64,000 bases of DNA from a phage, in sequence record NC_111505.1. One strand, given 5' to 3'. Positions within the stretch are counted from its first letter, which is position 1. Each line of letters begins with the position of its first letter. The notes under the pieces were generated by a model, which was not told the origin of the DNA, made no database searches, and was given only the letters and a program-made list of their open reading frames with translations. Below, piece by piece: positions 3,762 through 17,499 of the stretch. Made by a program: the position numbers and the translations under genes.

Positions 3762-4001
3762 ATGTATAAGTCATTTTCAATTTACTCAAGACAGGCAAAA
3801 CACTACACGGAGATTCTGATCACTCAGAAAAAGTCTGTAGAAGGTGAGTGGGAATATCATCATAAAATGTTGCGTCCAGACTGGGTTTTTGATAGACTTA
3901 TTGCTATGATCCCTCTTGGAGAAGTATACCCTCTGACAGGTCATAGGGATGCTTGGGATTTAATTGATTACATAGATTCATTTAAGGAGCCCGGTGTATG
4001 A
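3762..4001 (+). CDS. hypothetical protein (79 aa)
   Basis: Track ORF begins at TTG 3735; first ATG at 3762 has SD AGAGGGGGG. Confidence 0.55.
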   Translation: MYKSFSIYSRQAKHYTEILITQKKSVEGEWEYHHKMLRPDWVFDRLIAMIPLGEVYPLTGHRDAWDLIDYIDSFKEPGV

Positions 4002-4396
4002 AGATTGAGATCACTAAAGAAGGTAAGAAAGTGTCTGGCGATTATGCAACAGTAATTCGGGATGTAATGTTTGAAGTAACCCAGATTGGTACGTCTAAGG
4101 TTGGTCAAACGGTAAGTGTGCAAGGTAATATTGCCACAGGTGAAAAGATAATCATCGTGATCAAAGGACAAGACCCTGTGGAAGGAACAGTGGGCCGAGG
4201 AGGCTACCTGTGCATTTCTGAAGAACCGCGTATGCTGGTTGCTGATGACTCCACAGGTAAAAAGCGGGTATGTAACACGGACGAGGTGATGATTATCTAT
4301 CCAGTCAACCCAGATGATCCGGCAACATGGATTGTGGGAAATGAAATCTTCTCTTTAGAAGAGTTATCCTTCCCAGCCCCGCGCTCTGTTCAGTAA
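3998..4396 (+). CDS. hypothetical protein (132 aa)
   Basis: ATG with AAGGAG 8 nt upstream; overlaps previous stop by 4 nt. Confidence 0.6.
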   Translation: MKIEITKEGKKVSGDYATVIRDVMFEVTQIGTSKVGQTVSVQGNIATGEKIIIVIKGQDPVEGTVGRGGYLCISEEPRMLVADDSTGKKRVCNTDEVMIIYPVNPDDPATWIVGNEIFSLEELSFPAPRSVQ

Positions 4397-4435
4397 TAAT
4401 TTATCTTACCAGGGACGGTAGAAGTAGGAGGTAGC

Positions 4436-4669
4436 ATGAAAGTTAAATTTCTTACAGATTTAGGGTACCCTTCCTTGGTTGACTGCGTTGGTAAAATTGT
4501 GGAAGCAAAACGACTATCTGCAAACGATAATGTTGTCATGGTTAAGGGAAAAGATTTACTATCTGCAGGTGCAGAGTCTGGCAGGATCTCTCCTGACTAT
4601 ACGTATTACCTGTCTTTAAGTAATCTACCAGAACGAGGCGGCAAAGGTCTTGAAGTTGTGGAGGAGTGA
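4436..4669 (+). CDS. small acidic protein, MKVK...VEIVE paralog family
   Basis: ATG with AGGAGG SD; N-terminal MKVKFL and C-terminal ...LEVVEE shared with at least 9 other ORFs in the window. Confidence 0.6.
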   Translation: MKVKFLTDLGYPSLVDCVGKIVEAKRLSANDNVVMVKGKDLLSAGAESGRISPDYTYYLSLSNLPERGGKGLEVVEE

Positions 4670-4674
4670 CAGGT

Positions 4675-5193
4675 ATGCTGCTAGTTGATTGGAAAGATTT
4701 TTATGGCGACAAAGACCCGAAAGCATTTATATATAAGCCTTGGAGATACTCAGAAAGTCAAATTGCTGCAATAAACCTTACAGCAAAGCGCCGAAAAATT
4801 ATCGAAAGTAAATATAGATACGCTCAGCTGGTAGCTGGTGTTTCTCCACAGGTAGAGAGTTTTGTGCTTAAACTGTACGAAAAGTTTATGAGTTACGATC
4901 TGTCATTCGTGAAGGTTGGTGATGATTTATCTCCTGGTAACAACGTAACCCGTTGGAAAGTTTCGTGTGACAAAAAACTCCCGATCAGTATTGAGGTGTG
5001 TCGATACTGGGGGTATCATGAGTGTGGATTTTATGACTACCATGATGTGGAAATAAAGCCACGCAATCATCTAAGCGACCCAGAAAAAGATTACTTGAAG
5101 CATGTGATTCTTTCCATGTTTGGAGGGTACATCACAGAGAAAAATAGCGAAGACAGAATATCCTTTCTTAACAGTTTGAACCAAGAGATGTAG
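4675..5193 (+). CDS. hypothetical protein (172 aa)
   Basis: Track start is GTG 4666; ATG 4675 has GGAGGAG 8 nt upstream. Confidence 0.55.
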   Translation: MLLVDWKDFYGDKDPKAFIYKPWRYSESQIAAINLTAKRRKIIESKYRYAQLVAGVSPQVESFVLKLYEKFMSYDLSFVKVGDDLSPGNNVTRWKVSCDKKLPISIEVCRYWGYHECGFYDYHDVEIKPRNHLSDPEKDYLKHVILSMFGGYITEKNSEDRISFLNSLNQEM

Positions 5194-5194
5194 T

Positions 5195-5431
5195 ATGACT
5201 ATAGACACTGTGCTGGTTTGGTATTGCGCATTGACCTTTCTGACAATGGTTGTTTTAGCAACTCTTTGCATCATATCTTGTAGAAAAATTAAGTTTGACG
5301 ACTTTATAACTATAATCACTGCCGCACCTTTTTGGCCTGTCGTTCTCTTCATTGTTGTTATGTGCTTGGTAGATCACTGTAAAACCGTCAGAAAAATGAA
5401 GGAGGCAGATAGGAATGGTAACAGTGACTGA
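5195..5431 (+). CDS. small membrane protein (2 predicted TM helices)
   Basis: ATG 5195; hydrophobic stretches; weak SD. Confidence 0.5.
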   Translation: MTIDTVLVWYCALTFLTMVVLATLCIISCRKIKFDDFITIITAAPFWPVVLFIVVMCLVDHCKTVRKMKEADRNGNSD

Positions 5432-5545
5432 AACTGTTTATACTGTTCTTAGGGAGATTGCATTCTATACAGACCTTAGTTTAGCATCTTCATGGGAAAA
5501 GAGTATGTATTTAAAATGGTGCGTGAAATTAGAGGGGGCCTTCTA

Positions 5546-5665
5546 ATGTTTCAAGCCATGTTTATTGAAATGCTCTCCGGAGTATTATTGCTGGTAGCCA
5601 TTTTGGGTGGTGCGGCGCTAATGTATAATTATCTTGAAAAAGGGGACAGTAATGACAAAAAATAA
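5546..5665 (+). CDS. candidate 39-aa hydrophobic peptide (below track cutoff)
   Basis: ATG with AGAGGGGG SD; MFQAMFIEMLSGVLLLVAILGGAALMYNYLEKGDSNDKK. Confidence 0.3.
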   Translation: MFQAMFIEMLSGVLLLVAILGGAALMYNYLEKGDSNDKK

Positions 5666-5837
5666 ATCCTTAGAACAGGCTGAAAACCTTCTCCACGAGC
5701 TGGTAAAGGAGTGGAAAGTTGAATACTCAGATTTTAATGCAAGAGAGGGGGAAGATTATTGGCCTACGGAGCGTTCAGAAGGAGAGTGGTATCAAGATTT
5801 CATAGAATGGTTATATCAGACGTGCGATGAGGGGTGA
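5652..5837 (+). CDS. hypothetical protein (61 aa)
   Basis: Track start is TTG 5634; ATG 5652 preceded by AAAAAGGGGA. Confidence 0.5.
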   Translation: MTKNKSLEQAENLLHELVKEWKVEYSDFNAREGEDYWPTERSEGEWYQDFIEWLYQTCDEG

Positions 5838-5839
5838 AG

Positions 5840-6295
5840 ATGTTTGTTAAATATGTAAAAACGTGCCTCAACAACCTTGGTAGAGAGCATTGGTACACCT
5901 TGCTTGAAAAAGGAGAAATTTTAACAAAATCTGGAAAGATAACTCTGAGACCATTGGACGATAAAGACCCGTCACTACTTGTCATAGATGATTACGTCAC
6001 AGGTGTGTCGTACGAGGTTTCTGTGGAGAGGTTAATACGCAGATCTGGAGGTCCTTGTGATCGAAGAGAGTATGTTTTCGATTCTGTTACAGAGAAGGAA
6101 GATCCGTCTCTAATGTTTAGGATGGTAATCAGAGATATGAAATCATCTATGAATAGGATCGTGAAGGACATTAAGGAGCCTTTTTGGGTAAAAGTTAAGA
6201 AGTTTTTTGATTCTAAGATTAATATACTCGCCGTTGTGCTAGGCGTAATTCAACTTCTGTTAATTTTGCACTATCTTGAACTGTTGTTCAAGTAG
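5840..6295 (+). CDS. hypothetical protein with C-terminal TM helix
   Basis: Track start is GTG 5834; ATG 5840 preceded by GAGGGG. Confidence 0.55.
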   Translation: MFVKYVKTCLNNLGREHWYTLLEKGEILTKSGKITLRPLDDKDPSLLVIDDYVTGVSYEVSVERLIRRSGGPCDRREYVFDSVTEKEDPSLMFRMVIRDMKSSMNRIVKDIKEPFWVKVKKFFDSKINILAVVLGVIQLLLILHYLELLFK

Positions 6296-6355
6296 TGTGC
6301 AACTAGGCACAAAGGATGTGCCATGATTAAATAAACTAAGAAAGAGGTAGAGAGA

Positions 6356-6703
6356 ATGCCAAAGATTAAGTCGATATTAATGTGGGCAGTTGTTGTAGCT
6401 TTTGTAGGATACTGGACTTGGAAAACTGAATTAAAAGATATCGGATATACCAGTCTTGAGAGCAAGGCATGCATTGGCATAACCGATGCATTCAGGCAAA
6501 ATGCTATGGATCACGAATGTGTCGATGCAGATATAGATGAGAAACTGTCTAAGGACAAGGATTTTTACCATGGTCATGCCTTGCTTGATAGTGGTGACAC
6601 TGTAGAATTCTGGTCGTGGTTCCGTGAAGATGGAACAATAAAGACAGCAGTAAAGATTTCCAACAAAGAGTTAATGCTGTTGCAACAGAAGGAGGTGCAA
6701 TGA
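6356..6703 (+). CDS. hypothetical protein with N-terminal signal/TM segment
   Basis: ATG with AAAGAGG SD; MPKIKSILMWAVVVAFVGYW... Confidence 0.6.
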   Translation: MPKIKSILMWAVVVAFVGYWTWKTELKDIGYTSLESKACIGITDAFRQNAMDHECVDADIDEKLSKDKDFYHGHALLDSGDTVEFWSWFREDGTIKTAVKISNKELMLLQQKEVQ

Positions 6704-6987
6704 TTTGGATATCCTACGCTGATGGCACCATGCTGTATACTGCAGGTACTAGGTATGAAGTTCAGGAGGACGATAAAAAATTTATCGTAAAAACATTTGA
6801 CAAGGACGACAACCTTTTGTTAGAATTGACTTACAAGGTTGGGGAGGTATCTAGCATCCAATTGGATTGCGGTCATAAAGATAACCCGCTCAAGAAACCT
6901 GGGGTAGGTAAAGCTTCAGAAGAACGCCTGTCTCGTATTGCAGAAAGCGTTTCTGCACAAAAATCTAAGAAGGGGACTAGAAAATGA
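6700..6987 (+). CDS. hypothetical protein (95 aa)
   Basis: ATG with AAGGAGG SD; 4-nt overlap with upstream gene. Confidence 0.6.
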   Translation: MIWISYADGTMLYTAGTRYEVQEDDKKFIVKTFDKDDNLLLELTYKVGEVSSIQLDCGHKDNPLKKPGVGKASEERLSRIAESVSAQKSKKGTRK

Positions 6988-7178
6988 AAAACTTACGTTT
7001 TAACACTTATTACTACAACACTTTGAATGATTTGTATTATATTGTTCGAAGTAAAAGTCCTGAAACAGTACTATTCTGCCGCGAACCTTTCAAAGGTGAG
7101 GAAGTAGAGTCTGAAATGAATGTTAGCCATATTACCTCTTTGTTGCTCTCTGGCACAATGGAAGAAGCAATATTCTAA
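6984..7178 (+). CDS. hypothetical protein (64 aa)
   Basis: ATG with AAGGGGA SD; ATGA overlap. Confidence 0.55.
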   Translation: MKNLRFNTYYYNTLNDLYYIVRSKSPETVLFCREPFKGEEVESEMNVSHITSLLLSGTMEEAIF

Positions 7179-7196
7179 ACCGGACGGGAGGGTTTT

Positions 7197-7394
7197 ATGA
7201 AGCACTATTGCCTGTTTGGTAGGATGGGTGTAGATTGTGATTGGGTTTTCTTAAAACTTGTCAGCATCCGAGAGTCAATCCCAGAAGAAGAGCAAGAAAG
7301 TGAGCTGATGGCATGGATCAACTATTACGGCAACACTTTCAGGTATGTCAAAATGGAAGGGCTGCCAAGCGAGGCTGAAGATGAAACTGTTTGA
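7197..7394 (+). CDS. hypothetical protein (65 aa)
   Basis: ATG with GGGAGGG SD. Confidence 0.5.
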   Translation: MKHYCLFGRMGVDCDWVFLKLVSIRESIPEEEQESELMAWINYYGNTFRYVKMEGLPSEAEDETV

Positions 7395-7665
7395 GTGGTT
7401 TAAAAAGTTTAAATACCGAGCCGTTGCTGTATCGAAATGGACCGTCCGCTGGGTGGACGATGGTGGAACACAAATTCCAGGTGATCAGGATACCGGATAC
7501 TGGGTTATGATGGAGAACGGATTTGGGAAAAGGAAGTTTAAATGTGTTGGTGCTCCTACTCTTTTAAATGTTAGAAGTGTGCCAGGGTACAGCACTATGG
7601 TTGTTTGGGAGCTATCCGGTGTTCCTCCTGCCAATGTGCAATATCTGCCAAACCCAGAAAAATAA
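7381..7665 (+). CDS. hypothetical protein (94 aa)
   Basis: In-frame ATG 7381 with GAGG SD chosen over track ATG 7345 to limit overlap with the upstream gene. Confidence 0.5.
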   Translation: MKLFEWFKKFKYRAVAVSKWTVRWVDDGGTQIPGDQDTGYWVMMENGFGKRKFKCVGAPTLLNVRSVPGYSTMVVWELSGVPPANVQYLPNPEK

Positions 7666-7677
7666 AAGGAGAAGATA

Positions 7678-7962
7678 ATGAGCAATGGTGTCAGTAACAG
7701 TGCTGCAGAGTTTAAAGTGATCTGTAAAGGAACTTATTGGATAGTGAAACAGAAGGTGTACCTATTCGGCTTCATACCGTTTTGGCAGAGATTTTGCTGG
7801 GGAGCTAACGAGCTTAAGAGATACGCCACCAAGGCTATGGCACTTATTGGTATAGCTGAATACATTGCTGCCAGGGACAGAGAGGGGAAAACTTGTTACT
7901 ACACTGCTGACGAGATTCGCAACAGTGTTTACGTTCCACAACCGCCCGATGGAGACCGCTGA
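7678..7962 (+). CDS. hypothetical protein (94 aa)
   Basis: ATG with AAAAGGAGAAG SD. Confidence 0.55.
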   Translation: MSNGVSNSAAEFKVICKGTYWIVKQKVYLFGFIPFWQRFCWGANELKRYATKAMALIGIAEYIAARDREGKTCYYTADEIRNSVYVPQPPDGDR

Positions 7963-8195
7963 TGAAAGTGAAAGTTTTAGATTCAAACTTCTATATTGGT
8001 CAAGAGCCTTTAGTTGGAAAAGTGTTTACCGCTGTCCCTAACGAAGATTATCCTGACCTTTTAAAAATAAAGGGTGCAGATCTTATTGCCGCTGGAGCAT
8101 CTCAGGACTGCTTTGACAGTCAGTGGACCTACAACTTTGCCCTAGGGGAGGATGTGGAGATAGTGGAGGACGATCATGAAGGTCAAAATTCTTGA
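7962..8195 (+). CDS. small acidic protein, MKVK...VEIVE paralog family
   Basis: MKVKVLDSNFYIGQ...DVEIVED; paralogous to the adjacent 8176-8430 ORF. Confidence 0.6.
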   Translation: MKVKVLDSNFYIGQEPLVGKVFTAVPNEDYPDLLKIKGADLIAAGASQDCFDSQWTYNFALGEDVEIVEDDHEGQNS

Positions 8196-8430
8196 TTCTA
8201 ACGTCTACTTGGGGCAATCCTTTCTTAAAGGGAAGGTTGTACCTGCGGTGTACTTTGAATGGTTGCCTGACAACGATCCTGTGCGTCAGAAGCATTCCAC
8301 TGTATCACACGGTGTGGTATTTATTCGCGGGTTAGACCTGATCAAAGCTGGTGTCCCCAAGTATTACTTTGGGGAAGAACATTACTATGCCTTCGGTGTA
8401 GGAACAGACGTAGAGATTGTGGAGCGGTAG
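8176..8430 (+). CDS. small acidic protein, MKVK...VEIVE paralog family
   Basis: MKVKILDSNVYLGQ...DVEIVER; ATG with GGAGGA SD. Confidence 0.6.
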   Translation: MKVKILDSNVYLGQSFLKGKVVPAVYFEWLPDNDPVRQKHSTVSHGVVFIRGLDLIKAGVPKYYFGEEHYYAFGVGTDVEIVER

Positions 8431-8431
8431 T

Positions 8432-8830
8432 ATGAAGAACAAGCTTTTCAAAGTAACAATGAAAATTCGCGGAGCTTGGAGCGTAAAGCAAGGACGTATC
8501 CCAGAATTTGAGAAAGACTTCTACGTAGTCTCCACCTCGGAGGAGGCTGCATGCTGGCAGGCTGGCTATGCCTATGCAAGAACCTGGTACGAAGGGTACC
8601 AGACTGGGGGCTATGACGGAGAAATTGTCAGCAAGGGTGTGGAAGAAATTAATGTGTTGACAAGTGAAAAAGTTTTTGTTATAGTGCATCCAGATTCCAG
8701 AGTGAAGCATTACTGGAATGCCAGAACAAAAACTTGGACACCGTTTGCAGATTCTGCTACACCACTTTTAAACCAAAAAGCTCTTGACTCTGCCCCGAGC
8801 TACGGGGTTGTTGAAGAAAAGCTAGACTGA
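8432..8830 (+). CDS. hypothetical protein, paralog of 10646-11041
   Basis: Track start is TTG 8417; ATG 8432 has GGAG SD; shares ...HP.S...YW......WTP... block with the 10646 ORF. Confidence 0.6.
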   Translation: MKNKLFKVTMKIRGAWSVKQGRIPEFEKDFYVVSTSEEAACWQAGYAYARTWYEGYQTGGYDGEIVSKGVEEINVLTSEKVFVIVHPDSRVKHYWNARTKTWTPFADSATPLLNQKALDSAPSYGVVEEKLD

Positions 8831-8847
8831 AACAGTGAGGTGCCACT

Positions 8848-9138
8848 ATGATGGATTTAGTTCTGAATATTGATAACGCAGGAGAGTTTAAAGACGATGG
8901 TGTAACAAGCATTGACCAACCATGCTCTGCCAAGATTGACTCAAAATGGACCCACAAGTTTGACGGAGAGATCTTCGCAAATGATGAGAAGGTTGTAGAT
9001 GCTGCAGCCATTTTGAACGCCCTAGGGTACGACCCTGTGAATTCTTTGATCAAGGATCCTGTTGAGTTTGCAGAGTATGTTCGAAAAATGGCAGATCTTG
9101 CTGTAGATATTTTAGATACTATCGATAATAAGCTGTAA
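8848..9138 (+). CDS. hypothetical acidic protein (96 aa)
   Basis: ATG with GAGG SD. Confidence 0.6.
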   Translation: MMDLVLNIDNAGEFKDDGVTSIDQPCSAKIDSKWTHKFDGEIFANDEKVVDAAAILNALGYDPVNSLIKDPVEFAEYVRKMADLAVDILDTIDNKL

Positions 9139-9144
9139 AAACTG

Positions 9145-9173
9145 TTGACACAACGCTTCAGCTATAGTATTAT
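9145..9173 (+). promoter_or_regulatory. Sigma70-like promoter TTGACA-N17-TATTAT
   Basis: Consensus -35 and near-consensus -10; followed by hairpin AAGAGAGA..TCTCTCTT (9182-9207) and SD AAGGAG. Confidence 0.6.
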
Positions 9174-9267
9174 TGTTTTCAAAGAGAGATGGTTGTTATT
9201 CTCTCTTCCTTAAAAGGAGCACGTTATGCAAATTTAAATCACTGGCAACGTAGAAATCACTGAAGGT

Positions 9268-9543
9268 ATGGTGTCTTTCATTTCCCACAAAATGTCTAAG
9301 CTGGAGCGTTTGCACCCCTCTGCCAACTATGCACGTGTGAGTGTAAAAGTTGAAAATGATCACCAGGAAGTCATGGCTTTTATTTTTGACAATTCTGGGA
9401 AAGAAGTTATCGCCAAAGCTAAAGGTAGCGATGCTTACGAGGCAACTGACCGTATGGTGGATGTTGCAGCACGCCAGTTGGCTAAATGCGGTGGAAAGAA
9501 AGGTAAGGGAAAAGGTAAAGTAAAGATTGACTTTTGGGATTGA
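9268..9543 (+). CDS. hpf: Ribosome hibernation factor (HPF/RaiA, S30AE family)-like, N-terminally disrupted
   Basis: KLE..., V.VKVE, ...G.D.Y.A.D...D.AARQL.K match HPF/RaiA; the homologous frame starts at ATG 9226 after SD AAGGAG but has TAA at codon 4 (9235-9237); track ORF starts at internal Met 9268. Confidence 0.45.
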   Translation: MVSFISHKMSKLERLHPSANYARVSVKVENDHQEVMAFIFDNSGKEVIAKAKGSDAYEATDRMVDVAARQLAKCGGKKGKGKGKVKIDFWD

Positions 9544-9552
9544 GGTGCTACA

Positions 9553-9654
9553 ATGGGTATAATTAAGAAATTAGTCCCAAATGTAGAGATTGCATGCTTT
9601 GAAATTATGTTTGCAATCGCAGTTGTAGTTAATGTGTTAGGTTACGGCTATTAA
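9553..9654 (+). CDS. candidate 33-aa hydrophobic peptide
   Basis: ATG with GAGGTG SD; MGIIKKLVPNVEIACFEIMFAIAVVVNVLGYGY. Confidence 0.3.
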   Translation: MGIIKKLVPNVEIACFEIMFAIAVVVNVLGYGY

Positions 9655-9680
9655 TATCAAATAATTGAGGAGACCTCTAA

Positions 9681-9950
9681 ATGAAAATTAAATTATTCAA
9701 AACTGAGCTGGCAGACAAAAACTGCGGACTGGTTGAAGGCATGATCGTTGAAGCACAACCAGTGGACTACATGAAGGTGGTTCGTGATGCTCTGGGTGAA
9801 GGTTTTGATCTGATGGATCCAGCTCTGCGAGAAGATGTCATCGAGATGGCTAAAAAGCACACACCTGAAGGCTTGGTAGTGTTTGTTGCTCCAGGTAACG
9901 GAGAAGAGTTGATTGTAACTCCTGATGTGTATGAGATTGTAGAAGAGTAA
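9681..9950 (+). CDS. small acidic protein, MKIK...YEIVEE paralog family
   Basis: ATG with GAGGAGA SD; C-terminal ...VYEIVEE. Confidence 0.6.
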   Translation: MKIKLFKTELADKNCGLVEGMIVEAQPVDYMKVVRDALGEGFDLMDPALREDVIEMAKKHTPEGLVVFVAPGNGEELIVTPDVYEIVEE

Positions 9951-10045
9951 TCCTGCTTGGATTAGCATACTTCTCTCAATAAAAAGAAAAGTTTGTAATT
10001 ATTTGTGGGAAAGGAATCCCAATCTCTTACTAGAGGTGATACTAT

Positions 10046-10309
10046 ATGATTGTTTATTTTAAAACTTCAGGTGGATATCCTGATTCTCAAAGCTTGATCG
10101 GAAAAACGTGCACAGCATACTCACCTCTTGATGAGGAGGTAAGCGATATTCTACGAAATATGTATCGGATTGACCCCCAAGAAGCCTTTGATCAAAACCT
10201 TGTATTTGTCAAGGGCTCAGACATGAAGTCTTTGGGAGCATTCCCTGAAGCAGATGATGATGCCGTTTATTCGTTCATGACTCCTTTTGAAGCTATGGTT
10301 GTTGGGTGA
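10046..10309 (+). CDS. small acidic protein (87 aa), related to the paralog family
   Basis: ATG with AGAGGTGA SD. Confidence 0.55.
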   Translation: MIVYFKTSGGYPDSQSLIGKTCTAYSPLDEEVSDILRNMYRIDPQEAFDQNLVFVKGSDMKSLGAFPEADDDAVYSFMTPFEAMVVG

Positions 10310-10313
10310 GAAT

Positions 10314-10646
10314 ATGAAAGTACGCTTTATTGGTGAAACAATTCCTGTGCATCTCCGGTCGCCTGAGGATTCTGCAGATCTTGCATCTCAAAAGGCCAGA
10401 GGGTATGATAAGAAAGTAATCTCAACCGATGTAGAGCTTGAGGCTACCAGTCTGCCTGACCCTGCTGCATTCTTTAATCATTATGGATACTATTTCAGCA
10501 ATCTGATGAATATCGGTGAGCTTGTGTTTATTAGTGGTGGAGAAATAGTTAGCAAGCTTGGCGGCGATCCGGATGTCTTTCATGAAACCTGCCCTTTTGC
10601 ATTTGTGGTAGGTTCAGATGTGGAAGTTATTGAGGAGGTGCGGTAA
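10314..10646 (+). CDS. small acidic protein, ...VEVIEE paralog family
   Basis: Track start is TTG 10287; ATG 10314 with GGGTGAG SD; C-terminal ...DVEVIEEVR. Confidence 0.55.
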   Translation: MKVRFIGETIPVHLRSPEDSADLASQKARGYDKKVISTDVELEATSLPDPAAFFNHYGYYFSNLMNIGELVFISGGEIVSKLGGDPDVFHETCPFAFVVGSDVEVIEEVR

Positions 10647-11041
10647 TGGTAAGTCTATACCGTGTTGAGTATAGCTCAGATACTGTATACAACGTAAGAA
10701 GCAAAGATCGTAGCGGCAGAGTGCAAGAAATGTATGTTCTTGCCGACAGTCCGTTATCTGCAGCGTTTAAGGCAGGAGCTCTTGCATCTCGTTGGAAATT
10801 CGAGGGTGGATCTTTCTATGAAGAAACTCTTGAAGATTCTGTTGTTATTTCTTCTGTAGAGGTTTCAACTGACTACGAAGGGAAAAAGTTCGTAATGCGG
10901 CACCCACACAGCAACATTGCGTACTACTGGGATGTTCTGAACAACGAGTGGACTCCAGATCTTCAGAAGGCCACTGTTCTGACTCCGTTCTTGGCAGATA
11001 AGTTTCCACCAGAAGGTAATTTATCTGCACTGTTTCAGTAA
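10646..11041 (+). CDS. hypothetical protein, paralog of 8432-8830
   Basis: ATG with GAGGAGG SD; shared HP.S...YYW....WTP block. Confidence 0.6.
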   Translation: MVSLYRVEYSSDTVYNVRSKDRSGRVQEMYVLADSPLSAAFKAGALASRWKFEGGSFYEETLEDSVVISSVEVSTDYEGKKFVMRHPHSNIAYYWDVLNNEWTPDLQKATVLTPFLADKFPPEGNLSALFQ

Positions 11042-11059
11042 TTTTATGCCACACAGGTG

Positions 11060-11088
11060 TTGACAACACCAACCCTGTGTGCAATAAT
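11060..11088 (+). promoter_or_regulatory. Sigma70-like promoter (TTGACA-N17-AATAAT) embedded in an 8-bp inverted repeat
   Basis: CACACAGG..TTGACA..CCTGTGTG palindrome overlaps the -35, suggesting an operator. Confidence 0.55.
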
Positions 11089-11120
11089 ACCTTCATCTTA
11101 ACAAGACAGGAGACTGATTA

Positions 11121-11378
11121 ATGAAGATTAAATTGAAAAACCTTGAAACGGCAGAGATTCAGGACGGTGTTGATTTCCGCTCCAAAGATGGCGACATCTT
11201 AGAGGCGAATATCCCGACCTATAAGTTGATTAAAGGTTTTGGCAACGTTCCGGAAGAGGATATTACAGACATTCTTATGATGTTGATCCTTGACGGGACC
11301 GTGTTTGTAGGTGAAGGTGAGAACGCTATTGCAATCCCAAGCCATTTTTATGAAGTAGTTGACGAAGAGGTGCTGTAA
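11121..11378 (+). CDS. small acidic protein, MKIK...YEVVDEE paralog family
   Basis: ATG with AGGAGA SD. Confidence 0.6.
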   Translation: MKIKLKNLETAEIQDGVDFRSKDGDILEANIPTYKLIKGFGNVPEEDITDILMMLILDGTVFVGEGENAIAIPSHFYEVVDEEVL

Positions 11379-11729
11379 ATGAAAGTAGAGATCACAGGTT
11401 TTGATATGAATGTGGTTCCGGAAGATATTTTAGCTAAACTTCCGGAAGGTTTTGGTAACGGTGTTGTGGTGGATGCTGTACCTCCTACCAAAGACATTCT
11501 GCTGCAGTATGGTGTAGCAGAGGAAGATGTCGATAAAGTTCTTACAATGATGGCAATCGACCGTGTTGTCGTTGTTAAAGGTCTTGAAGGTTTTGATGAC
11601 GATCCTCTGATTATTCGTGGTGATGACTATCGCATCATCGACAACGAAGGCCAAGAGTTCTACGAACCTTCTGCTGAAGATGTTCTTAACTTACTACTGG
11701 AAGCAGGCACCGAAGAGGAGGAAGAATAA
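11379..11729 (+). CDS. small acidic protein, paralog family (poly-Glu tail)
   Basis: ATG with GAAGAGG SD; ends ...EAGTEEEEE. Confidence 0.6.
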   Translation: MKVEITGFDMNVVPEDILAKLPEGFGNGVVVDAVPPTKDILLQYGVAEEDVDKVLTMMAIDRVVVVKGLEGFDDDPLIIRGDDYRIIDNEGQEFYEPSAEDVLNLLLEAGTEEEEE

Positions 11730-12058
11730 TGAAAATTGATCCGTTACTGAAGTCTCGTGCAGAAAAAGCATACACTATCAAGCTGACCTCTCTGGTCCCT
11801 ACTTGTCATCCGGATGTAGGTTGGCCTGAAGGCCTGGTAGAGGGGACTGTAACAGCTGCATACCTTCCTAACATCAAATACCTCATGGAGATCTTGGAGA
11901 TGGATGAGGAAACGGCAGAACAGTTCCAGTTAGACATGAAGCAAAGTGGGACTCTGGTTATTCACGGGTGGTATAATACTAAAGATGCAGAAGACCCTTT
12001 GGTAACTTCTAATCTGGCATATGAAATCTTAGGACCTTTGAACCTGGAGGAAGACTAA
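11729..12058 (+). CDS. small acidic protein (109 aa)
   Basis: ATG with GAGGAGGAAG SD; overlapping stop/start. Confidence 0.6.
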   Translation: MKIDPLLKSRAEKAYTIKLTSLVPTCHPDVGWPEGLVEGTVTAAYLPNIKYLMEILEMDEETAEQFQLDMKQSGTLVIHGWYNTKDAEDPLVTSNLAYEILGPLNLEED

Positions 12059-12345
12059 TGAAAGATTTGGTTAAGATCAAGATTAAAGATACCAATGGAG
12101 AACTCAGTCATTTTGGAATTAACGATGGTGACGAGCTGATCGCCCACCTGCCTACCAAGGAAGTTGTAAGCAAGGCTGTTGCAGGAGAAGAAGATGCAAT
12201 GCAGGAGGCAGGTGTTGATGAAAACTATGTAGCCATGTGCATGTGCCGAGATCAGGTTGTTCTGTATAAAGCGTATCGACCAAATGGAGCACCTGAGTGG
12301 CTTGTTTTCCGACCCGAAGGGTATGAAATTTTAGAGACACTATGA
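12058..12345 (+). CDS. small acidic protein, paralog family (...YEILETL)
   Basis: ATG with GGAGGAAG SD. Confidence 0.6.
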   Translation: MKDLVKIKIKDTNGELSHFGINDGDELIAHLPTKEVVSKAVAGEEDAMQEAGVDENYVAMCMCRDQVVLYKAYRPNGAPEWLVFRPEGYEILETL

Positions 12346-12434
12346 TAAATCTTGCCAAGGTTGCAACGGCACTGTTAATTATTTGCTGGGTAGCAACCTT
12401 AACACTATGCCTTGTATTTCATTAAGGGGGCTGT

Positions 12435-12698
12435 ATGAACATCCTGATGTGGGTTGTGGCAGTGGCGTTTGTTGCGTGCCTCTCTTGTTGGGTTGCTGTG
12501 AGGATTTCTATAGCCACTCTTCGGAAATTGGGGTTCTCAGAGTGGGATATTAATATCCTTTCTTTTCGCAACGAGACGATCTCGGCTGCCTTACTGTGCA
12601 AGAAGTTCAAGTGGAAACCTTGGGAGGTCATGAGCTATCTAAGAACAGGAGATATTCCTGAGAGATTTAAAAAAGTTCTTGACGGCGAAGATAAATGA
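12435..12698 (+). CDS. membrane protein (N-terminal TM helix)
   Basis: ATG with AAGGGGG SD; MNILMWVVAVAFVACLSCWVAV... Confidence 0.55.
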   Translation: MNILMWVVAVAFVACLSCWVAVRISIATLRKLGFSEWDINILSFRNETISAALLCKKFKWKPWEVMSYLRTGDIPERFKKVLDGEDK

Positions 12699-12726
12699 TA
12701 GTATAGTTACTAACAAGAGGTGAGGA

Positions 12727-12867
12727 ATGACTGATTTTACTGAAGCTTTAATGATGGCCTTATCCGTTTTAGCGCTATCTGTGTGTTTTGGGGCGTTATT
12801 CACATCTCTGGTTAAAGTTTTACATACCATATTATCACCCAAGGAGCACAGTAATGACGAAGATTGA
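12727..12867 (+). CDS. candidate 46-aa membrane peptide
   Basis: ATG with strong SD AAGAGGTGAGGA; hydrophobic core; below track cutoff. Confidence 0.35.
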   Translation: MTDFTEALMMALSVLALSVCFGALFTSLVKVLHTILSPKEHSNDED

Positions 12868-13105
12868 CTTAAATGCTGGCGACCATGTTGTTGTCAAATG
12901 CATCGGAGATTATCTTGGATTCACAATCGGCAATACTTACGAGGCGGTAGTGGCGAAGGTTTACCATGATAAAGTCCTCAGTCTTGTATTTGACTGCGAT
13001 GATGATGGGGATGACCGATACGTCTGTGAGGTGCTGTCACGAGACGATAGTGAAGACCAGAAATTCCTGGTTATTGAACTGAACGGTATTTTTGTAGAAC
13101 GTTAA
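12854..13105 (+). CDS. hypothetical protein (83 aa)
   Basis: Track start is TTG 12788; ATG 12854 preceded by AAGGAG. Confidence 0.5.
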   Translation: MTKIDLNAGDHVVVKCIGDYLGFTIGNTYEAVVAKVYHDKVLSLVFDCDDDGDDRYVCEVLSRDDSEDQKFLVIELNGIFVER

Positions 13106-13133
13106 TTTAAAACAACATAAGGAGACTCTTACT

Positions 13134-13439
13134 ATGGCTAAATCTAAAGTTGAACTGTTCACCTCTCTTCCTTCTGACACTGCAGAACGTGATCGCCTTC
13201 GCAAAACAATTGAAGAGCTGGTAGAACTTCAGCTTCAGATCAAAGATCTGAAAGATGCTATCAAAGATATCATTCTTGTCGAGAAACAGGATCACCTGTA
13301 CTCTCCTAAGTTTATTAAATCTTTGGTGGCTACCGAATTCGATATCCGCTACGAAGCTGAAAAACGTCGAGCTAAAATCGAAGAAGAGGTTGAGCACATG
13401 TCTGAAGCAGACATTCTGTTCAAACGCTCTGTAGAATAA
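13134..13439 (+). CDS. hypothetical coiled-coil protein (101 aa)
   Basis: ATG with AAGGAGA SD. Confidence 0.6.
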   Translation: MAKSKVELFTSLPSDTAERDRLRKTIEELVELQLQIKDLKDAIKDIILVEKQDHLYSPKFIKSLVATEFDIRYEAEKRRAKIEEEVEHMSEADILFKRSVE

Positions 13440-13443
13440 CGAC

Positions 13444-13472
13444 AAAGAGGGGTTTTGGCCCCTCTTTTTACT
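13444..13472 (+). terminator. Rho-independent terminator
   Basis: AGAGGGG-TTTTGG-CCCCTCT hairpin followed by TTTTTA. Confidence 0.7.
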
Positions 13473-13492
13473 ATCTATGAAGGAGATCAGAG

Positions 13493-13819
13493 ATGCGAAT
13501 GCCGATTACTGTAAAAGAGCTAAATGAACGTGATGCAGGGGGCCTGTGGCCTGCGCGGAAAATACGCTGCGTTTATATGAGAGAGAATCTTGAGCACCTT
13601 GATCAACAGATTGCGGTGGGGGATATTTTCGAAGTTTTCTATTCTAATCGCCGCAACTGGGAAACCATTCAACCTTCAGGTTTTGTTCTTGCCAAACTTG
13701 ATACCGGAGAAGTGATTATCCCTGGGCTGGATATTGTCTTCGAAATTATCCAGGAGTGGGATCCTGATAAGATTAAATATGAAGAGTTATTCGGTGAAGG
13801 TATTATCAAGCCTGTGTGA
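13493..13819 (+). CDS. hypothetical protein (108 aa)
   Basis: ATG with AAGGAGA SD. Confidence 0.6.
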   Translation: MRMPITVKELNERDAGGLWPARKIRCVYMRENLEHLDQQIAVGDIFEVFYSNRRNWETIQPSGFVLAKLDTGEVIIPGLDIVFEIIQEWDPDKIKYEELFGEGIIKPV

Positions 13820-13827
13820 GGTGGATT

Positions 13828-14127
13828 ATGTCTACAGCGACAGCTAAATACTCCTATATGCCAGCAACATCAGCAGAAATAGACTTCAGTTTCGATGTGT
13901 TTCCATTGTTTGAGATAGTTCTGGCATACCCAACAATTCTATCTACTCCTGAATCACTTGTGCCTATTAAGTTGCAGAACGCTATGCATTCCATGCACTA
14001 CAACAATAAATGCAGGCACAGATGGTGTCAGGACGAGGAAAAAGACTTGGACAGTTTGAAAGATTTTGACAGTCACCTTTTGACCCCCTTCAGTTACTCC
14101 AACCTAGACAAGCCATCATGGGTATAG
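13828..14127 (+). CDS. hypothetical protein (99 aa)
   Basis: Track start is GTG 13816; ATG 13828 preceded by GAGGTGG. Confidence 0.55.
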   Translation: MSTATAKYSYMPATSAEIDFSFDVFPLFEIVLAYPTILSTPESLVPIKLQNAMHSMHYNNKCRHRWCQDEEKDLDSLKDFDSHLLTPFSYSNLDKPSWV

Positions 14128-14151
14128 CAAAATATCAAATTTAAGGCACCT

Positions 14152-14180
14152 AGGACGCTCTGTGGCGTCCTTTTCTTTAT
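14152..14180 (+). terminator. Rho-independent terminator
   Basis: AGGACGC-TCTGTG-GCGTCCT hairpin followed by TTTCTTT. Confidence 0.65.
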
Positions 14181-14339
14181 CTGGTGCACGATTGCATACC
14201 TTAGATGGATAATCTTATTACAGAGCGTTTAATGGCGGCCTGTAAACAACTTTCTATTTCGAGCGTAGCGAGAACGCACGTCCGTTTTGACCCAAATCAC
14301 CATACGCTCGGATTTTAACCAACCCTCGCGGCGTTTCTG

Positions 14340-14368
14340 TTGACACATTACCGCTCCTGTGATAGTAT
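14340..14368 (+). promoter_or_regulatory. Sigma70-like promoter TTGACA-N17-TAGTAT
   Basis: The track ORF 14340-14651 'start' is the TTG of this -35 box. Confidence 0.55.
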
Positions 14369-14388
14369 CCTCACATCGTTTGAAGAAT

Positions 14389-14490
14389 ATGGAATACGCA
14401 ATGAAAACATTGTCCGAGGTTTTGGTGGTGATCCTGATGATCATTACGTCCATAGCGGCTGTTGCCGGAATACTCACAGGTGGAACATGA
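14389..14490 (+). CDS. candidate 33-aa hydrophobic peptide
   Basis: MEYAMKTLSEVLVVILMIITSIAAVAGILTGGT downstream of the 14340 promoter; weak SD. Confidence 0.3.
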   Translation: MEYAMKTLSEVLVVILMIITSIAAVAGILTGGT

Positions 14491-14651
14491 CCAACACACA
14501 TGCACCTAAAGAGACATCTGAAGAAGCGACCGCAGAGAAAAACTTCAATTCTGAGGATTCTCTATCTCCGTCCCAGGTGGACCCTGAGGCTAATGACCTG
14601 ACGTGGGAGGACATCATAGCCATCTGGTTCTCTATCATGCCTGAGAACTAA
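14487..14651 (+). CDS. candidate small acidic protein (54 aa)
   Basis: ATG overlaps the previous stop (ATGA); in frame with track ORF 14340-14651; - strand ORF 14229-14501 is an alternative. Confidence 0.3.
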   Translation: MTNTHAPKETSEEATAEKNFNSEDSLSPSQVDPEANDLTWEDIIAIWFSIMPEN

Positions 14652-14795
14652 GAGTTCAGAGGTGGCAGACTATGAAGCACCGAGCCCACATAAGTTTATC
14701 ATGCTAAAGCATGGCCTGAAGAGGCAAACGTATATAAATTCCAGTGCATTGGAACGTATAACCCTGTTCACACTCTCATTTCCAGAGGAGATTTT

Positions 14796-15011
14796 ATGAA
14801 GATAGAAATATTTGGTGGAGCTGACAACACTCGTGGCCTGATTTACCTTGAATTCGATGAATCATACCTGCCAGAGGTGTTAAATATAGACTCTGTTGCT
14901 GAGGCTTTGGGAGTAAACCCTAAAGAACTCCACTCTTGTGCTGAGATCGATGGTTGGGAAGAGACCATGAACATTGATTTCAGTGAAGTAGAGGATGAAC
15001 CGCTGGACTGA
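14796..15011 (+). CDS. small acidic protein, MKIEIF paralog family
   Basis: ATG with AGAGGAGA SD. Confidence 0.55.
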   Translation: MKIEIFGGADNTRGLIYLEFDESYLPEVLNIDSVAEALGVNPKELHSCAEIDGWEETMNIDFSEVEDEPLD

Positions 15012-15359
15012 CACACAATTAGCTGCCAGGCTAAAGTGCTGGAAGCACCTATAACACATCTTTCAACTAAATTTCCTACCACCACAATCACTTACCTCCC
15101 ACACATGACTGTTTGCTTGTTTAGTGAGCAGTCATGCCTTGACATTCTTGCCTATCCTGATAAAATTAAGTTCTTCTCTTTTCTTTTACCGAGTAATTCG
15201 GGTTTTCTGTTCTCTTCGGTTTGAAGGGGTATGGAGATACACCTGAGTGAACAGGGTGAACAACCGAACAGTTGGCTATGGCATTAGCATGGCGAAGCGG
15301 ACGGGTGACGAAAGAGGGGCCGGAGGACACCAGTCACTGCCATATGGTATATGGGTGAT

Positions 15360-15925
15360 AACCTGAAGAGTCTGAATAAGTGTTTAAGTACCAGTCAGAG
15401 GAAAAGGTGAATGGTAGCCGAAGGGGGAGGGGGGTTTCTTGTATCTTTAATTTGTATATTTTATATACACTTGTAAACCAATTTCATCTGAATCTGTTTA
15501 CCACACAAAGTGGATAAAGTCAAATATTCCCTATTAAACTTGAATTATTTATAGAAAATACCACAACACCACTTAAGTCTTTGATTTTACACACAAATCT
15601 TACAAATATCTTACCTCCATATTTAACATACCTGTAACATATTCCATACTCTACCTGCCTGGTCAATTTACCCACCACATTCTCCACATTTTCCCTTCCT
15701 GTACTACCCCTGCCCCGCCGGGAGTCCCGTCATATCTGGCTTTCCAGCAAATATCACACCCACAAATATCATCACCTGAAGAGTGATTCATCCTATAATA
15801 CCTGCCTTACCTGAAGAGCGCTCCATACCCCACGTAAATTTTTTAATTGACCCCCTGCCCCGCCGGAGGGGTTGGCTTTTCCCACACAGGCCTGAAGAGT
15901 CAGCCAGAAATATCTGAAGGGGGTC
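15360..15925. repeat. Dispersed CCTGAAGAG motif (5 copies) plus two CCCTGCCCCGCCGG copies
   Basis: Copies near 15362, 15777, 15812, 15892, 15914; GC-rich direct repeats near 15708 and 15852; irregular spacing as for protein-binding sites. Confidence 0.5.
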
Positions 15926-16096
15926 CAGTTCTGCCACGATTTTGACCTGACCTACAGGAGCGCTGCCAGGCGGACGAAATGGGAATACTTCTCATTCTTA
16001 TAACAATTCTCAAATATCAAGGCAGTGAGGCAAATTAATAGGCGAGGCCGTTCACACAGTGGCGCAACATTTGCAAGCTATTTTGTGTGGATGAAT

Positions 16097-16130
16097 GAGA
16101 ATACTTATCATTGTGAGAATCGTTATCATT
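16097..16130. repeat. Tandem 16-mer GAGAATNNTTATCATT (2 copies, 2-nt spacer)
   Basis: 16097-16112 and 16115-16130; the same 16-mer recurs at 27733-27748 and 27869-27884. Confidence 0.55.
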
Positions 16131-16534
16131 ACGGGCAATTTAACATAATACCCATTATGCGCACCACTGGCGATACATACATGGATTGATAACATGGGTT
16201 ACTGTTTACGCATATAACAATTGTATTTCTTATTATTTGTGGGGGATATAGTTAGCGACCAATAGATTAGATATTAACCTGCAGACTTCTGACCGTCCAG
16301 ACGTCTAAACGCCCACACAACAAGGGTTATACATACACTCCTGAATGTAAACAGGGCAGCAAAAATGCTACCATACCAGATTGTAAATTTTCCATGCAGC
16401 ACTTGACAAAGAGGAGAAAAACTTGTCTGACACAATGTCACACAATATGCCATAATCTGACACCTTATACACTTTCGACACAATAACGACTGTTATTATT
16501 TCATGTTTCATTGTTCACGTGCAGATTGTTCCCA

Positions 16535-16890
16535 CATAGACTGTTTACGCCCGGATAGTTTACACCTTGACAGTTTACACAAAGATGATAAGCCATGACA
16601 TTCGTTTGCATGATAACACCCTTGAGACGAGGGCCATGCTCCCGAGTTTAACAATTAACAAGATAACAATTGACAGGCCGACAATTAACAAGTTAACAAT
16701 ATATGACATAATATAAAAGCAGGGCAACTATTAGCAGATCATAGTTGCCTTGCTTATTATGTCATGATTAACTGAATACAAGGCAACTATGATCTGATCA
16801 ATAGTTTGCAGGCAAACTATCACGGGGGTGATGGTTACTGCTTTTATATTATGTCGCGACTCCGTCGCGCCATGACATTCGTTTGCATAG
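16535..16890. repeat. Cluster of direct repeats and palindromes (operator/iteron-like)
   Basis: Three (C/T)(T/A)GTTTACRC repeats at 16541-16582; CATGACATTCGTTTGCAT twice (16594, 16871); ACAATTAACAAG twice; two palindromes GCAACTAT-N9/10-ATAGTT(T)GC with GATC cores (16724-16748, 16783-16809). Confidence 0.5.
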
Positions 16891-17499
16891 TTGCCTTATT
16901 GTTACAGGTAAAACAATTACATTGTTAACTATTTCTTATCTTTCTCTTAGTCATCTAATGATTCCAGTCAGTATAGTTATGTACAGTAAACATTAGACGA
17001 CTAAAGATTTCTCTGATTATAGTAACCTATCGTGACAATTTCAGACTGTTTACGAAAAATGTTGACACCTGGGCGGGTTTATGTTATGCAGTTTACACGA
17101 ATAATTATTTCATACAGGTATTGACTATTCCGTTATTCTGTGGTTGGAATAAATACTTTGCAGGCTATAGAATGGTGTGCGTACGTGAATTCTGAGATCT
17201 GGCGGCTATAGTTACACCCGATTTTTCGCGCAGAACACGCTTTTTGGTTTGTGTAAGTGTATGACTTATAAAGATTTTTAGTTGTTGACACGGTATTGAA
17301 GATGTGCATCAGGTTAAATTTTGTGCAATAACTGCATTACGTGCAATTTTGGGAGAGAAAACGGGTAAAAATAGCACCGCTACCACACAATGAAAGGTTA
17401 TGCAATAGCTATTTTACATGTATATTTGTACAGTGTGCGGGATTGATGGCTCGTCAATTATTCCACTTGTCAGGTAGGGCCGTTTATGGTATGGGGAAG

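Follow-up and report, generated by a model that had tools for sequence, protein, structure and literature searches.

Two families of small paralogous proteins with a predicted SH3-like fold in an rV5/FV3-like Vequintavirus: candidate host-specific binding modules

The 64,000-nucleotide stretch of phage DNA analysed here (sequence record NC_111505.1, hereafter the window) derives from a Vequintavirus, an rV5/FV3-like myophage of Escherichia coli, and carries ten genes for small proteins which, as judged by profile comparison, make up two five-member families, A and B, with paralogy within each group. Phages of this genus are in wide use for therapy and biocontrol on account of their broad host range, yet roughly two thirds of the genes in their genomes lack an annotation. 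The group A genes are located at 4436-4669, 7962-8195, 8176-8430, 10046-10309 and 10314-10646 and the group B genes at 9681-9950, 11121-11378, 11379-11729, 11729-12058 and 12058-12345, all on the plus strand, and each is referred to below by its start position. Orthologues of two A genes, 10046 and 10314, and of the gene that follows them, 10646, are conditionally required by the related phage Bas54 on the uropathogenic strain CFE311 (bioRxiv 10.1101/2025.11.20.689424). The explanation that we favour, and to which we give about an even chance, is that the A and B proteins are host-specific protein-binding modules which bind and neutralise or redirect a host protein, most likely one of strain-variable immunity, and which have been diversified by duplication.

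An initial annotation, made from the sequence alone, had proposed a single family of at least ten small acidic paralogues in this region. In the all-versus-all comparison by BLASTP, 4436, 7962, 8176, 10046 and 10314 were linked at E values of 1e-17 to 4e-3, and 9681, 11121, 11379, 11729 and 12058 were linked weakly, at E values of 0.02-0.3. Profiles were compared for 36 genes of the block, using orthologues from FV3 and from a divergent syntenic genome (L003) together with 90 database homologues, and the top 16 of the 630 hhalign pairs all fell within A (99.5-69%, including 93.6% for 10314 with 8176), within B (88-23.5%) or between 8432 and 10646, two genes outside the families; the best pair of unrelated block genes reached 21% over 8 residues. 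Seven of the ten possible B pairs were among these 16 (88, 86, 49, 44, 38, 27 and 23.5%), 11379 being matched to 11121 at 87.9% and to 11729 at 86%, 12058 to 9681 at 49%, to 11379 at 44% and to 11729 at 38%, and 9681 to 11121 at 23.5%. An A profile built exclusively from outside the genus (27 full-length representatives, no Vequintavirus sequence) recovered 4436 and 7962 at 99.6%, 8176 at 99.1%, 10046 at 96.5% and 10314 at 96.6%, and scored at most 6.7% against all other block genes, the B genes giving 0.3-6.7% against A profiles. A group B hidden Markov model (HMM) detected all five B genes at E values of 1e-25 to 1e-35 (4e-25 for 9681, 1.8e-28 for 11729 and 4.7e-30 for 12058), with no other match in the window below E 1.9. 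The alignments thus revealed similarity beyond composition within each group, and two families of five instead of the one that had been proposed.

The paralogues are mutually 20-45% identical. The group A consensus is MKVKLLxxGGYxG...GKVVxA...VxIxGxELIxAGA...YxF...EIVEE, in which Tyr11, Gly38, Leu41, Gly45, Tyr57 and Phe59 (numbering of 7962) are conserved in 80-98% of 73 A sequences; Gly38 and Gly45 are invariant in the five A paralogues of the window, and M1, Tyr11, Gly38 and Gly45 are invariant in a 37-sequence alignment. The consensus of group B is MK[IV]x[LI]...GxhhxAxxPT...EE...M...GxVV...YEI, and its 16-sequence alignment is coherent, with Gly24, Ala29, Pro32 and Tyr77 conserved and Gly24 and Tyr77 kept across ten lineages. 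As the individual links are weak, the assignment of genes to group B draws on their network as a whole, together with the shared alignment and a confident joint model. The membership list of the initial annotation held for nine ORFs, which are placed in A or B; the B gene at 11729-12058 had been missed, and the tenth ORF listed (14796-15011, plus strand, 71 amino acids, bas54_0135), an acidic protein with a PHROG of its own, phrog_12108, was rejected, since its hhalign values did not exceed 5% with any gene of either group and were 0.2-2.8% with the group profiles (at most 2.6% with those of group A). The gene at 3998, which like 14796 begins with MKIE, was rejected as an extra member by the same profile comparison, and a six-frame scan of the 64 kb window found no further A or B members elsewhere.

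Structure prediction, which had also been suggested in the initial annotation, returned SH3-like five-stranded barrels for both groups. AlphaFold2 run on the family alignments gave models with a mean confidence (pLDDT) of 89.8 for 7962 (group A) and 89.4 for 11121 (group B), both following the order strand 1 (residues 2-5), long loop, strand 2, variable insert, strand 3, strand 4 and strand 5. The group A model has a short helix with a G-x-[DE]-L-I-x-A-G-A motif after strand 3, and the group B model has two helices between strands 2 and 3, the position at which the A proteins 10046 and 10314 carry inserts, that of 10314 being long. According to these models A and B share the SH3-like fold, the strand order and the variable-insert loop, and a common ancestry of the two groups is plausible. 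At the level of sequence the connection is borderline: merged A against merged B profiles gave hhalign values of 12-19%, over the N-terminal strand 1-strand 2 region, the sub-family of 9681, which is the B branch closest to group A, reached 46-62% against A when enlarged with the relatives P0133-P0142, over N-terminal residues 1-28 only, and of the 932 ORFs in the window, the two that the A HMM ranked highest outside group A were B genes, at E values of about 3. One family was rejected as a demonstrated fact, as neither the merged profiles, the enlarged profiles nor the 9681 sub-family was ever significant. KOW- and Tudor-type barrels were among the structural matches; in Pfam none of the ten proteins matched SH3, KOW or Tudor families at E<=1, a scan of the ten together with six neighbours gave no meaningful matches, and a PDB sequence search with both family profiles gave nothing below E 0.1.

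Over bases 4000-15100 the window shares 96% identity with phages HMD-6, SYGMH1 and FV3, and at least 80% of this segment is spanned by 114 phage records. The family genes lie within a plus-strand block of about 35 small genes, 3' of the genes for an anaerobic ribonucleotide reductase, PhoH, a ClpP-like protease and a DNA methyltransferase. The ten ORFs of the initial annotation proved to be real genes, located on the plus strand where it had put them: they coincide with annotated genes whose counterparts in FV3, rV5 and Bas54/MaxBurger are labelled 'hypothetical protein', and each family ORF begins with ATG and is preceded by a ribosome-binding site of the GGAG/GAGG type. The ratio of nonsynonymous to synonymous substitution rates (dN/dS), determined gene-wide by the Nei-Gojobori method against FV3, rV5 and Aya, the most divergent Vequintavirus, was 0.02-0.19 for all ten members where dS was informative (0.05-0.12 for 4436), with neighbouring genes in the same range, which indicates that the ten genes are maintained as proteins by purifying selection. 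The description of the proteins as acidic holds for eight of the ten, with isoelectric points (pI) of 4.05-4.6 and net charges of -8 to -22, and fails for 4436 (pI 5.4, net charge -1) and 8176 (pI 6.8, net charge 0). Across homologues the median net charge is -6 for group A and -11 for group B, all group B homologues being negatively charged.

In group A, 4436 encodes 77 amino acids (rV5 gp122, bas54_0166; phrog_5009 at E 8.5e-36), 7962 likewise 77 (gp135, bas54_0159), 8176 84 (gp136, bas54_0158; phrog_5009 at E 4e-27), 10046 87 (gp142 and bas54_0152, the latter at 100% identity) and 10314 110 (gp143, bas54_0151). The adjacent genes 7962 and 8176 overlap by 20 nt, in agreement with the initial annotation, and the stop codon of 10314 overlaps the start of 10646. 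Each of these two A pairs is followed 3' by a non-family gene assigned to phrog_7379, the first being 'X1' (8432-8830, plus strand, 132 amino acids, bas54_0157) and the second 'X2' (10646-11041, plus strand, 131 amino acids, bas54_0150 at 98% identity), and 8432 and 10646 represent a third paralogue pair (BLASTP E 1e-9, hhalign 96.6%). The gene order A-A-X is thus present twice, as 7962/8176/8432 and as 10046/10314/10646, and looks like an old segmental duplication. In group B, 9681 encodes 89 amino acids (gp141, bas54_0153), 11121 85 (gp145, bas54_0149), 11379 116, with a net charge of -22 and an acidic C-terminal tail (gp146, bas54_0148), 11729 109 (gp147, bas54_0147) and 12058 95 (bas54_0146), the orthologue of the last being split into gp148 and gp149 in the rV5 record (L008, 9526-9796).

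A strong sigma70-type promoter on the plus strand at 11060-11088 (TTGACA-17-AATAAT with an extended -10, 11 of 12 matches, corresponding to rV5 P150) lies directly 5' of 11121-12345, so that these four adjacent B genes, of which 11121 is the first, form one operon. A second such promoter on the same strand at 9145-9173 (11 of 12 matches, rV5 P144) precedes a ribosome hibernation factor gene and 9681/10046/10314/10646, and a sigma70-type site with 10 of 12 matches is found at 9527-9563 directly 5' of 9681. The initial annotation had placed its expanded family in an early region; the promoters directly upstream are consistent with this, and it is from them that early expression of the A and B genes would follow. 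The hibernation factor gene, a RaiA/HPF-type homologue at 9268-9543 on the plus strand, is surrounded by the paralogues and lies directly 3' of the 9145 promoter, and is non-essential in Bas54 (bioRxiv 10.1101/2025.11.20.689424).

An exhaustive HMM search with the A profile against 1.84 billion representative proteins returned 45 clusters at E<=1e-3. Single A copies were found in Citrobacter phage Merlin, which is T4-like (between gp32 and frd), in phiEap-2, a Jersey-like phage (beside an exonuclease), and in several phages of Proteus, Aeromonas, Pantoea and Pseudomonas. A single homologue, P0032, from a cluster of 309 sequences, lies in the accessory-gene region of lambdoid phages, flanked by the genes for antiterminator Q and the holin, in E. 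coli prophages (10001-10228 in L005, L006 and L007) and in phage MagusPhagus (3501-3728 in L014), which shows that the A domain has passed horizontally between virulent and temperate phages; among the A copies of the window P0032 is nearest to 4436 (49% identity). In these other phages the A domain always occurs among small unannotated accessory ORFs, and group A was thereby shown to be a rare, mobile phage domain. Tandem two- and three-fold A-domain fusions occur in P0100, P0105 and P0126, and Pfam gave no informative partner domains for the fused A proteins; the contigs of P0100 and P0130, 1.4-2.3 kb long, were too short to be informative about gene context; P0118 was discarded as a spurious match to Ig repeats. 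The exhaustive search covered group A, and the range given for group B is based on the relatives P0133-P0142 and on one structural match: B proteins occur in Vequintavirinae-like contigs, P0133-P0142 coming from another contig of this kind, and a single confident structural match in BFVD was obtained in Vibrio phage Vc1. Searches by tblastn with 7962 and 11379 against 50,697 phage records returned Vequintavirus orthologues only, at least 84% identical, and when the A and B alignments served as queries in word-indexed searches, almost all matches were orthologues.

Copy number varies between relatives. The window and Bas54 both carry five A, five B and two X genes, L003 five A (one broken), five B and one X, and the distant relative L016 one A, four B and one X, its sole A copy being the counterpart of 4436; other types of phage have one A copy only. 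In L003 the orthologue of 8176 is split into two ORFs (8114-8400) and no orthologue of 8432 is present. The 8176 gene of the window is itself a divergent allele, with 78-80% amino acid identity to FV3, rV5 and Aya at dS values of 0.6-1.6, compared with 93-98% for its neighbours, and 4666, 5195, 6984, 7345 and 7678 are FV3-type alleles that are 50-76% identical to those of rV5 and Aya; mosaic allele replacement is seen at 8176-8430 and likewise at 4666-5431 and 6984-7962. The rV5 genome paper makes no mention of paralogues or duplications.

The functional evidence comes from a preprint on HIDEN-SEQ, in which saturated transposon sequencing (Tn-seq) was performed on Bas54, that is phage MaxBurger, MZ501093 (bioRxiv 10.1101/2025.11.20.689424). 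Orthology between the window and Bas54 was confirmed gene by gene, at 92-100% identity and 80% for 8176. On K-12 all ten orthologues were non-essential, bas54_0151, 0152 and 0153 being classed as 'intermediate', and bas54_0150 (10646) was non-essential with 25 of 25 TA sites hit. When insertions on CFE311 were compared with those on K-12, bas54_0152 (10046) fell from a mean of 142 to 0.0 (log2 fold change -7.16, q=0), bas54_0151 (10314) to zero (-6.17, q=0) and bas54_0150 from 108 to 0.0 (-6.77, q=0), and bas54_0157 (8432) was depleted to a lesser degree (-2.14, q=0) (bioRxiv 10.1101/2025.11.20.689424). The value for bas54_0153 (9681), -2.78, was not significant, and neither the A genes 0158 (-0.30), 0159 (+0.98) and 0166 nor the B operon 0146-0149 (+0.06 for 0148, 11379) was affected. 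In the same comparison the MoxR ATPase gene bas54_0063 (-7.23) and bas54_0140 (-5.48) were depleted, and both were validated by clean deletion as necessary against DS-28, a defence system of CFE311 (bioRxiv 10.1101/2025.11.20.689424). The depletion of 0150-0152 equals in size that of these validated anti-DS-28 genes, to which neither A nor B is related in sequence. Judging from the Bas54 orthologues on CFE311, there is a need for at least the 10046-10314-10646 operon in some hosts only. The counterpart of bas54_0140 (92% identical, phrog_12072, no Pfam match) is located in the same block of the window, at 13816-14127 on the plus strand. Sheet S6 of Extended Data Table 8, labelled K-12 versus CFE303, has both its console command (B54_2_311) and its closing rows in common with S7 (CFE311), so that the CFE303 table is apparently missing (bioRxiv 10.1101/2025.11.20.689424); in view of this identity, and of the behaviour of 0140 and 0063, the data were treated as CFE311.

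Under the explanation that we favour, the A and B products would be small soluble cytoplasmic proteins built on the SH3-like five-stranded beta-barrel and produced early from host-type sigma70 promoters. Each, as a stand-alone binding module, would neutralise or redirect one particular host protein, the most likely target being a component of strain-variable anti-phage immunity, and gene duplication would then widen the range of targets. Candidate binding surfaces in group A are the conserved long strand 1-strand 2 loop with the invariant Tyr11 and the G-x-[DE]-L-I-x-A-G-A helix and loop after strand 3, and in group B possibly the helices inserted between strands 2 and 3. Arguments for an accessory or counter-defence role are the acidic charge, which speaks against nucleic-acid binding, the purifying selection, the sporadic and mobile distribution among accessory genes of unrelated phages, the turnover in copy number, the occasional pseudogenisation and the strain-specific requirement for an A-A-X set. 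The anti-defence role put forward in the initial annotation is plausible for a subset, given that 0152 and 0151 are depleted on CFE311 and that a bas54_0140 counterpart is in the block, and is without support from a CFE311 phenotype for the other eight members, the four genes of the B operon included.

Several points weigh against this explanation. Eight of the ten members (0146-0149, 0153, 0158, 0159 and 0166) are without a significant phenotype on CFE311, and the preprint contains neither clean deletions nor a discussion of bas54_0150-0152 (bioRxiv 10.1101/2025.11.20.689424). As 10046, 10314 and 10646 are co-directional and the last two overlap at stop and start, coupling or polarity could leave only 10646 as the gene required. 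The need for these genes on a clinical isolate could reflect a metabolic or physiological difference of the host in place of immunity, and gene-wide dN/dS against FV3, rV5 and Aya carries no arms-race signature, purifying selection being all that was seen. Finally, the early timing, the binding or inhibition, the identity of the target and the same job for the other eight members on other hosts are what we infer.

An alternative is that the A and B proteins are general host-takeover factors which act in every host on conserved machinery such as RNA polymerase, nucleoid proteins, the ribosome or the division apparatus, their importance being masked in single-gene Tn-seq by redundancy among paralogues. 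The position of the genes behind sigma70 promoters, among genes for nucleotide metabolism, a ClpP-like protease and a ribosome hibernation factor, is in keeping with this, as is the 'intermediate' class of bas54_0151-0153, which are not fully dispensable on K-12, and a five-fold paralogy could supply the redundancy. We nevertheless hold it to be unlikely, because proteins with so little mutual identity are not expected to be functionally redundant, the strongest phenotype is strain-specific, and a sporadic, mobile domain that is down to one copy in relatives has the pattern of an accessory gene.

It is also improbable that the CFE311 phenotype belongs to phrog_7379, that is to 10646 and its paralogue 8432, with the A and B proteins being low-impact accessory or regulatory proteins, for instance chaperone-like partners or nucleic-acid-binding modules of KOW or Tudor type. 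Both phrog_7379 paralogues are depleted on CFE311 and the A pair beside 0157 is not, the junction of 10314 and 10646 makes coupling plausible, and KOW and Tudor barrels do appear among the structural matches. Polarity is however not general in the data set, as genes directly 5' of other required genes were not depleted (0141 at -0.32, 0154 at +0.26, 0062 and 0064 at about 0) (bioRxiv 10.1101/2025.11.20.689424), which makes a general polar effect a weak explanation; moreover, a whole gene separates 0152 from 0150 and yet the depletion of 0152 is the strongest, and the acidic charge of the families argues against nucleic-acid binding.

A more far-reaching proposal, which we regard as quite doubtful, is that A and B both descend from a single ancient SH3-like superfamily, specific to phages, whose members are modular binders for immune evasion, and in which the A-A-X triplets would act as three-component counter-defence complexes and the duplicated triplets would be directed against different variants of a CFE311 defence system. 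The initial annotation had named DNA mimicry as an example, by which the proteins would block restriction enzymes or other DNA-binding defences in the manner of Ocr, ArdA, Arn and T7 gp5.9; the low pI and strong negative charge of eight members and the negative charge of all B homologues speak for it, but the predicted structures are compact barrels of the SH3-like type, two members (4436 and 8176) carry almost no net charge and these four mimics are absent from the PDB sequence and structure matches, so that we consider it very unlikely. That the resemblance is merely compositional or positional, residing in an MK[VI]K start and an acidic C-terminus of unrelated ORFans, has next to no chance of being correct; the weak A-B scores and the MKIE start of the unrelated neighbours 3998 and 14796 speak for it, but within the groups it is refuted by the confinement of the top 16 pairs to A, B and 8432/10646, by the recovery of every A gene at 96.5% or more with the outside-only profile, by the residues kept in B across ten lineages and by confident models of one fold for both groups.

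The 2.3 kb or so that follow the block (approximately 15012-17400) are without annotated genes and lie between oppositely oriented gene blocks at a change in the sign of the GC skew. Three iteron-like repeats with a spacing of 15 nt (ACAATTAACAAGnTAACAAT) are present at 16651-16700, as are two perfect inverted repeats of 18 nt, at 16705-16722/16838-16855 and at 16735-16752/16779-16796, and the region gave no match in tRNA and Rfam searches. In Bas54 the equivalent region tolerated no transposon insertions (bioRxiv 10.1101/2025.11.20.689424), and it may serve as an origin of replication or as some other essential element acting in cis.

With the A and B proteins, new and uncharacterised members are added to a familiar kind, that of the small accessory proteins which large virulent phages make early. 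A published screen shows three neighbouring genes, including two from group A, behaving like validated anti-defence genes. If the host-specific counter-defence role is true, the SH3-like barrel would be one more fold in use as an anti-defence scaffold, there would be a reason for the presence of the A domain across T4-like, Jersey-like and lambdoid phages, and the determinant in CFE311 could be tracked down; if 10646 alone accounts for the phenotype, the families stay ordinary accessory ORFs.

The same proteins are already contained in PHROGs, where each member matches its PHROG at E values of 1e-27 to 1e-75 and the ten genes are divided into eight families without function (phrog_5009 for 4436, 7962 and 8176, and phrog_13920, 13661, 11868, 12359, 12155, 12457 and 12794); PHROGs does not record paralogy, and the two families are now defined from ten 'hypothetical proteins'. 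The SH3-like barrels matched by the models, namely eukaryotic SH3, the Spt5 KOW domain, PsaE, the C-terminal domain of retroviral integrase and a PhnA-like C-terminal domain, are alike at the level of fold only, with sequence identities of 4-25%; unlike these, group A has motifs of its own (Tyr11, G-x-[DE]-L-I-x-A-G-A and Tyr57-x-Phe59) and group B has its two-helix insert. Ocr, ArdA, Arn and T7 gp5.9 are small and acidic, as are the A and B proteins with the exception of 4436 and 8176, and the A and B proteins differ from them in predicted fold. The multigene early accessory sets represented by the internal proteins and anti-restriction factors of T4, T5's pre-early genes and the host-takeover module of SPO1 consist mostly of unrelated proteins, unlike the five-fold paralogue families of one fold described here, and no link to them was found in sequence or structure; their products are small, often acidic, individually dispensable and encoded in clusters behind host-type promoters, as is the case here. 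A functional parallel exists with bas54_0140 and bas54_0063, which, like the orthologues of 10046, 10314 and 10646, belong to the same phage genus, are dispensable on K-12 and are fully depleted on CFE311.

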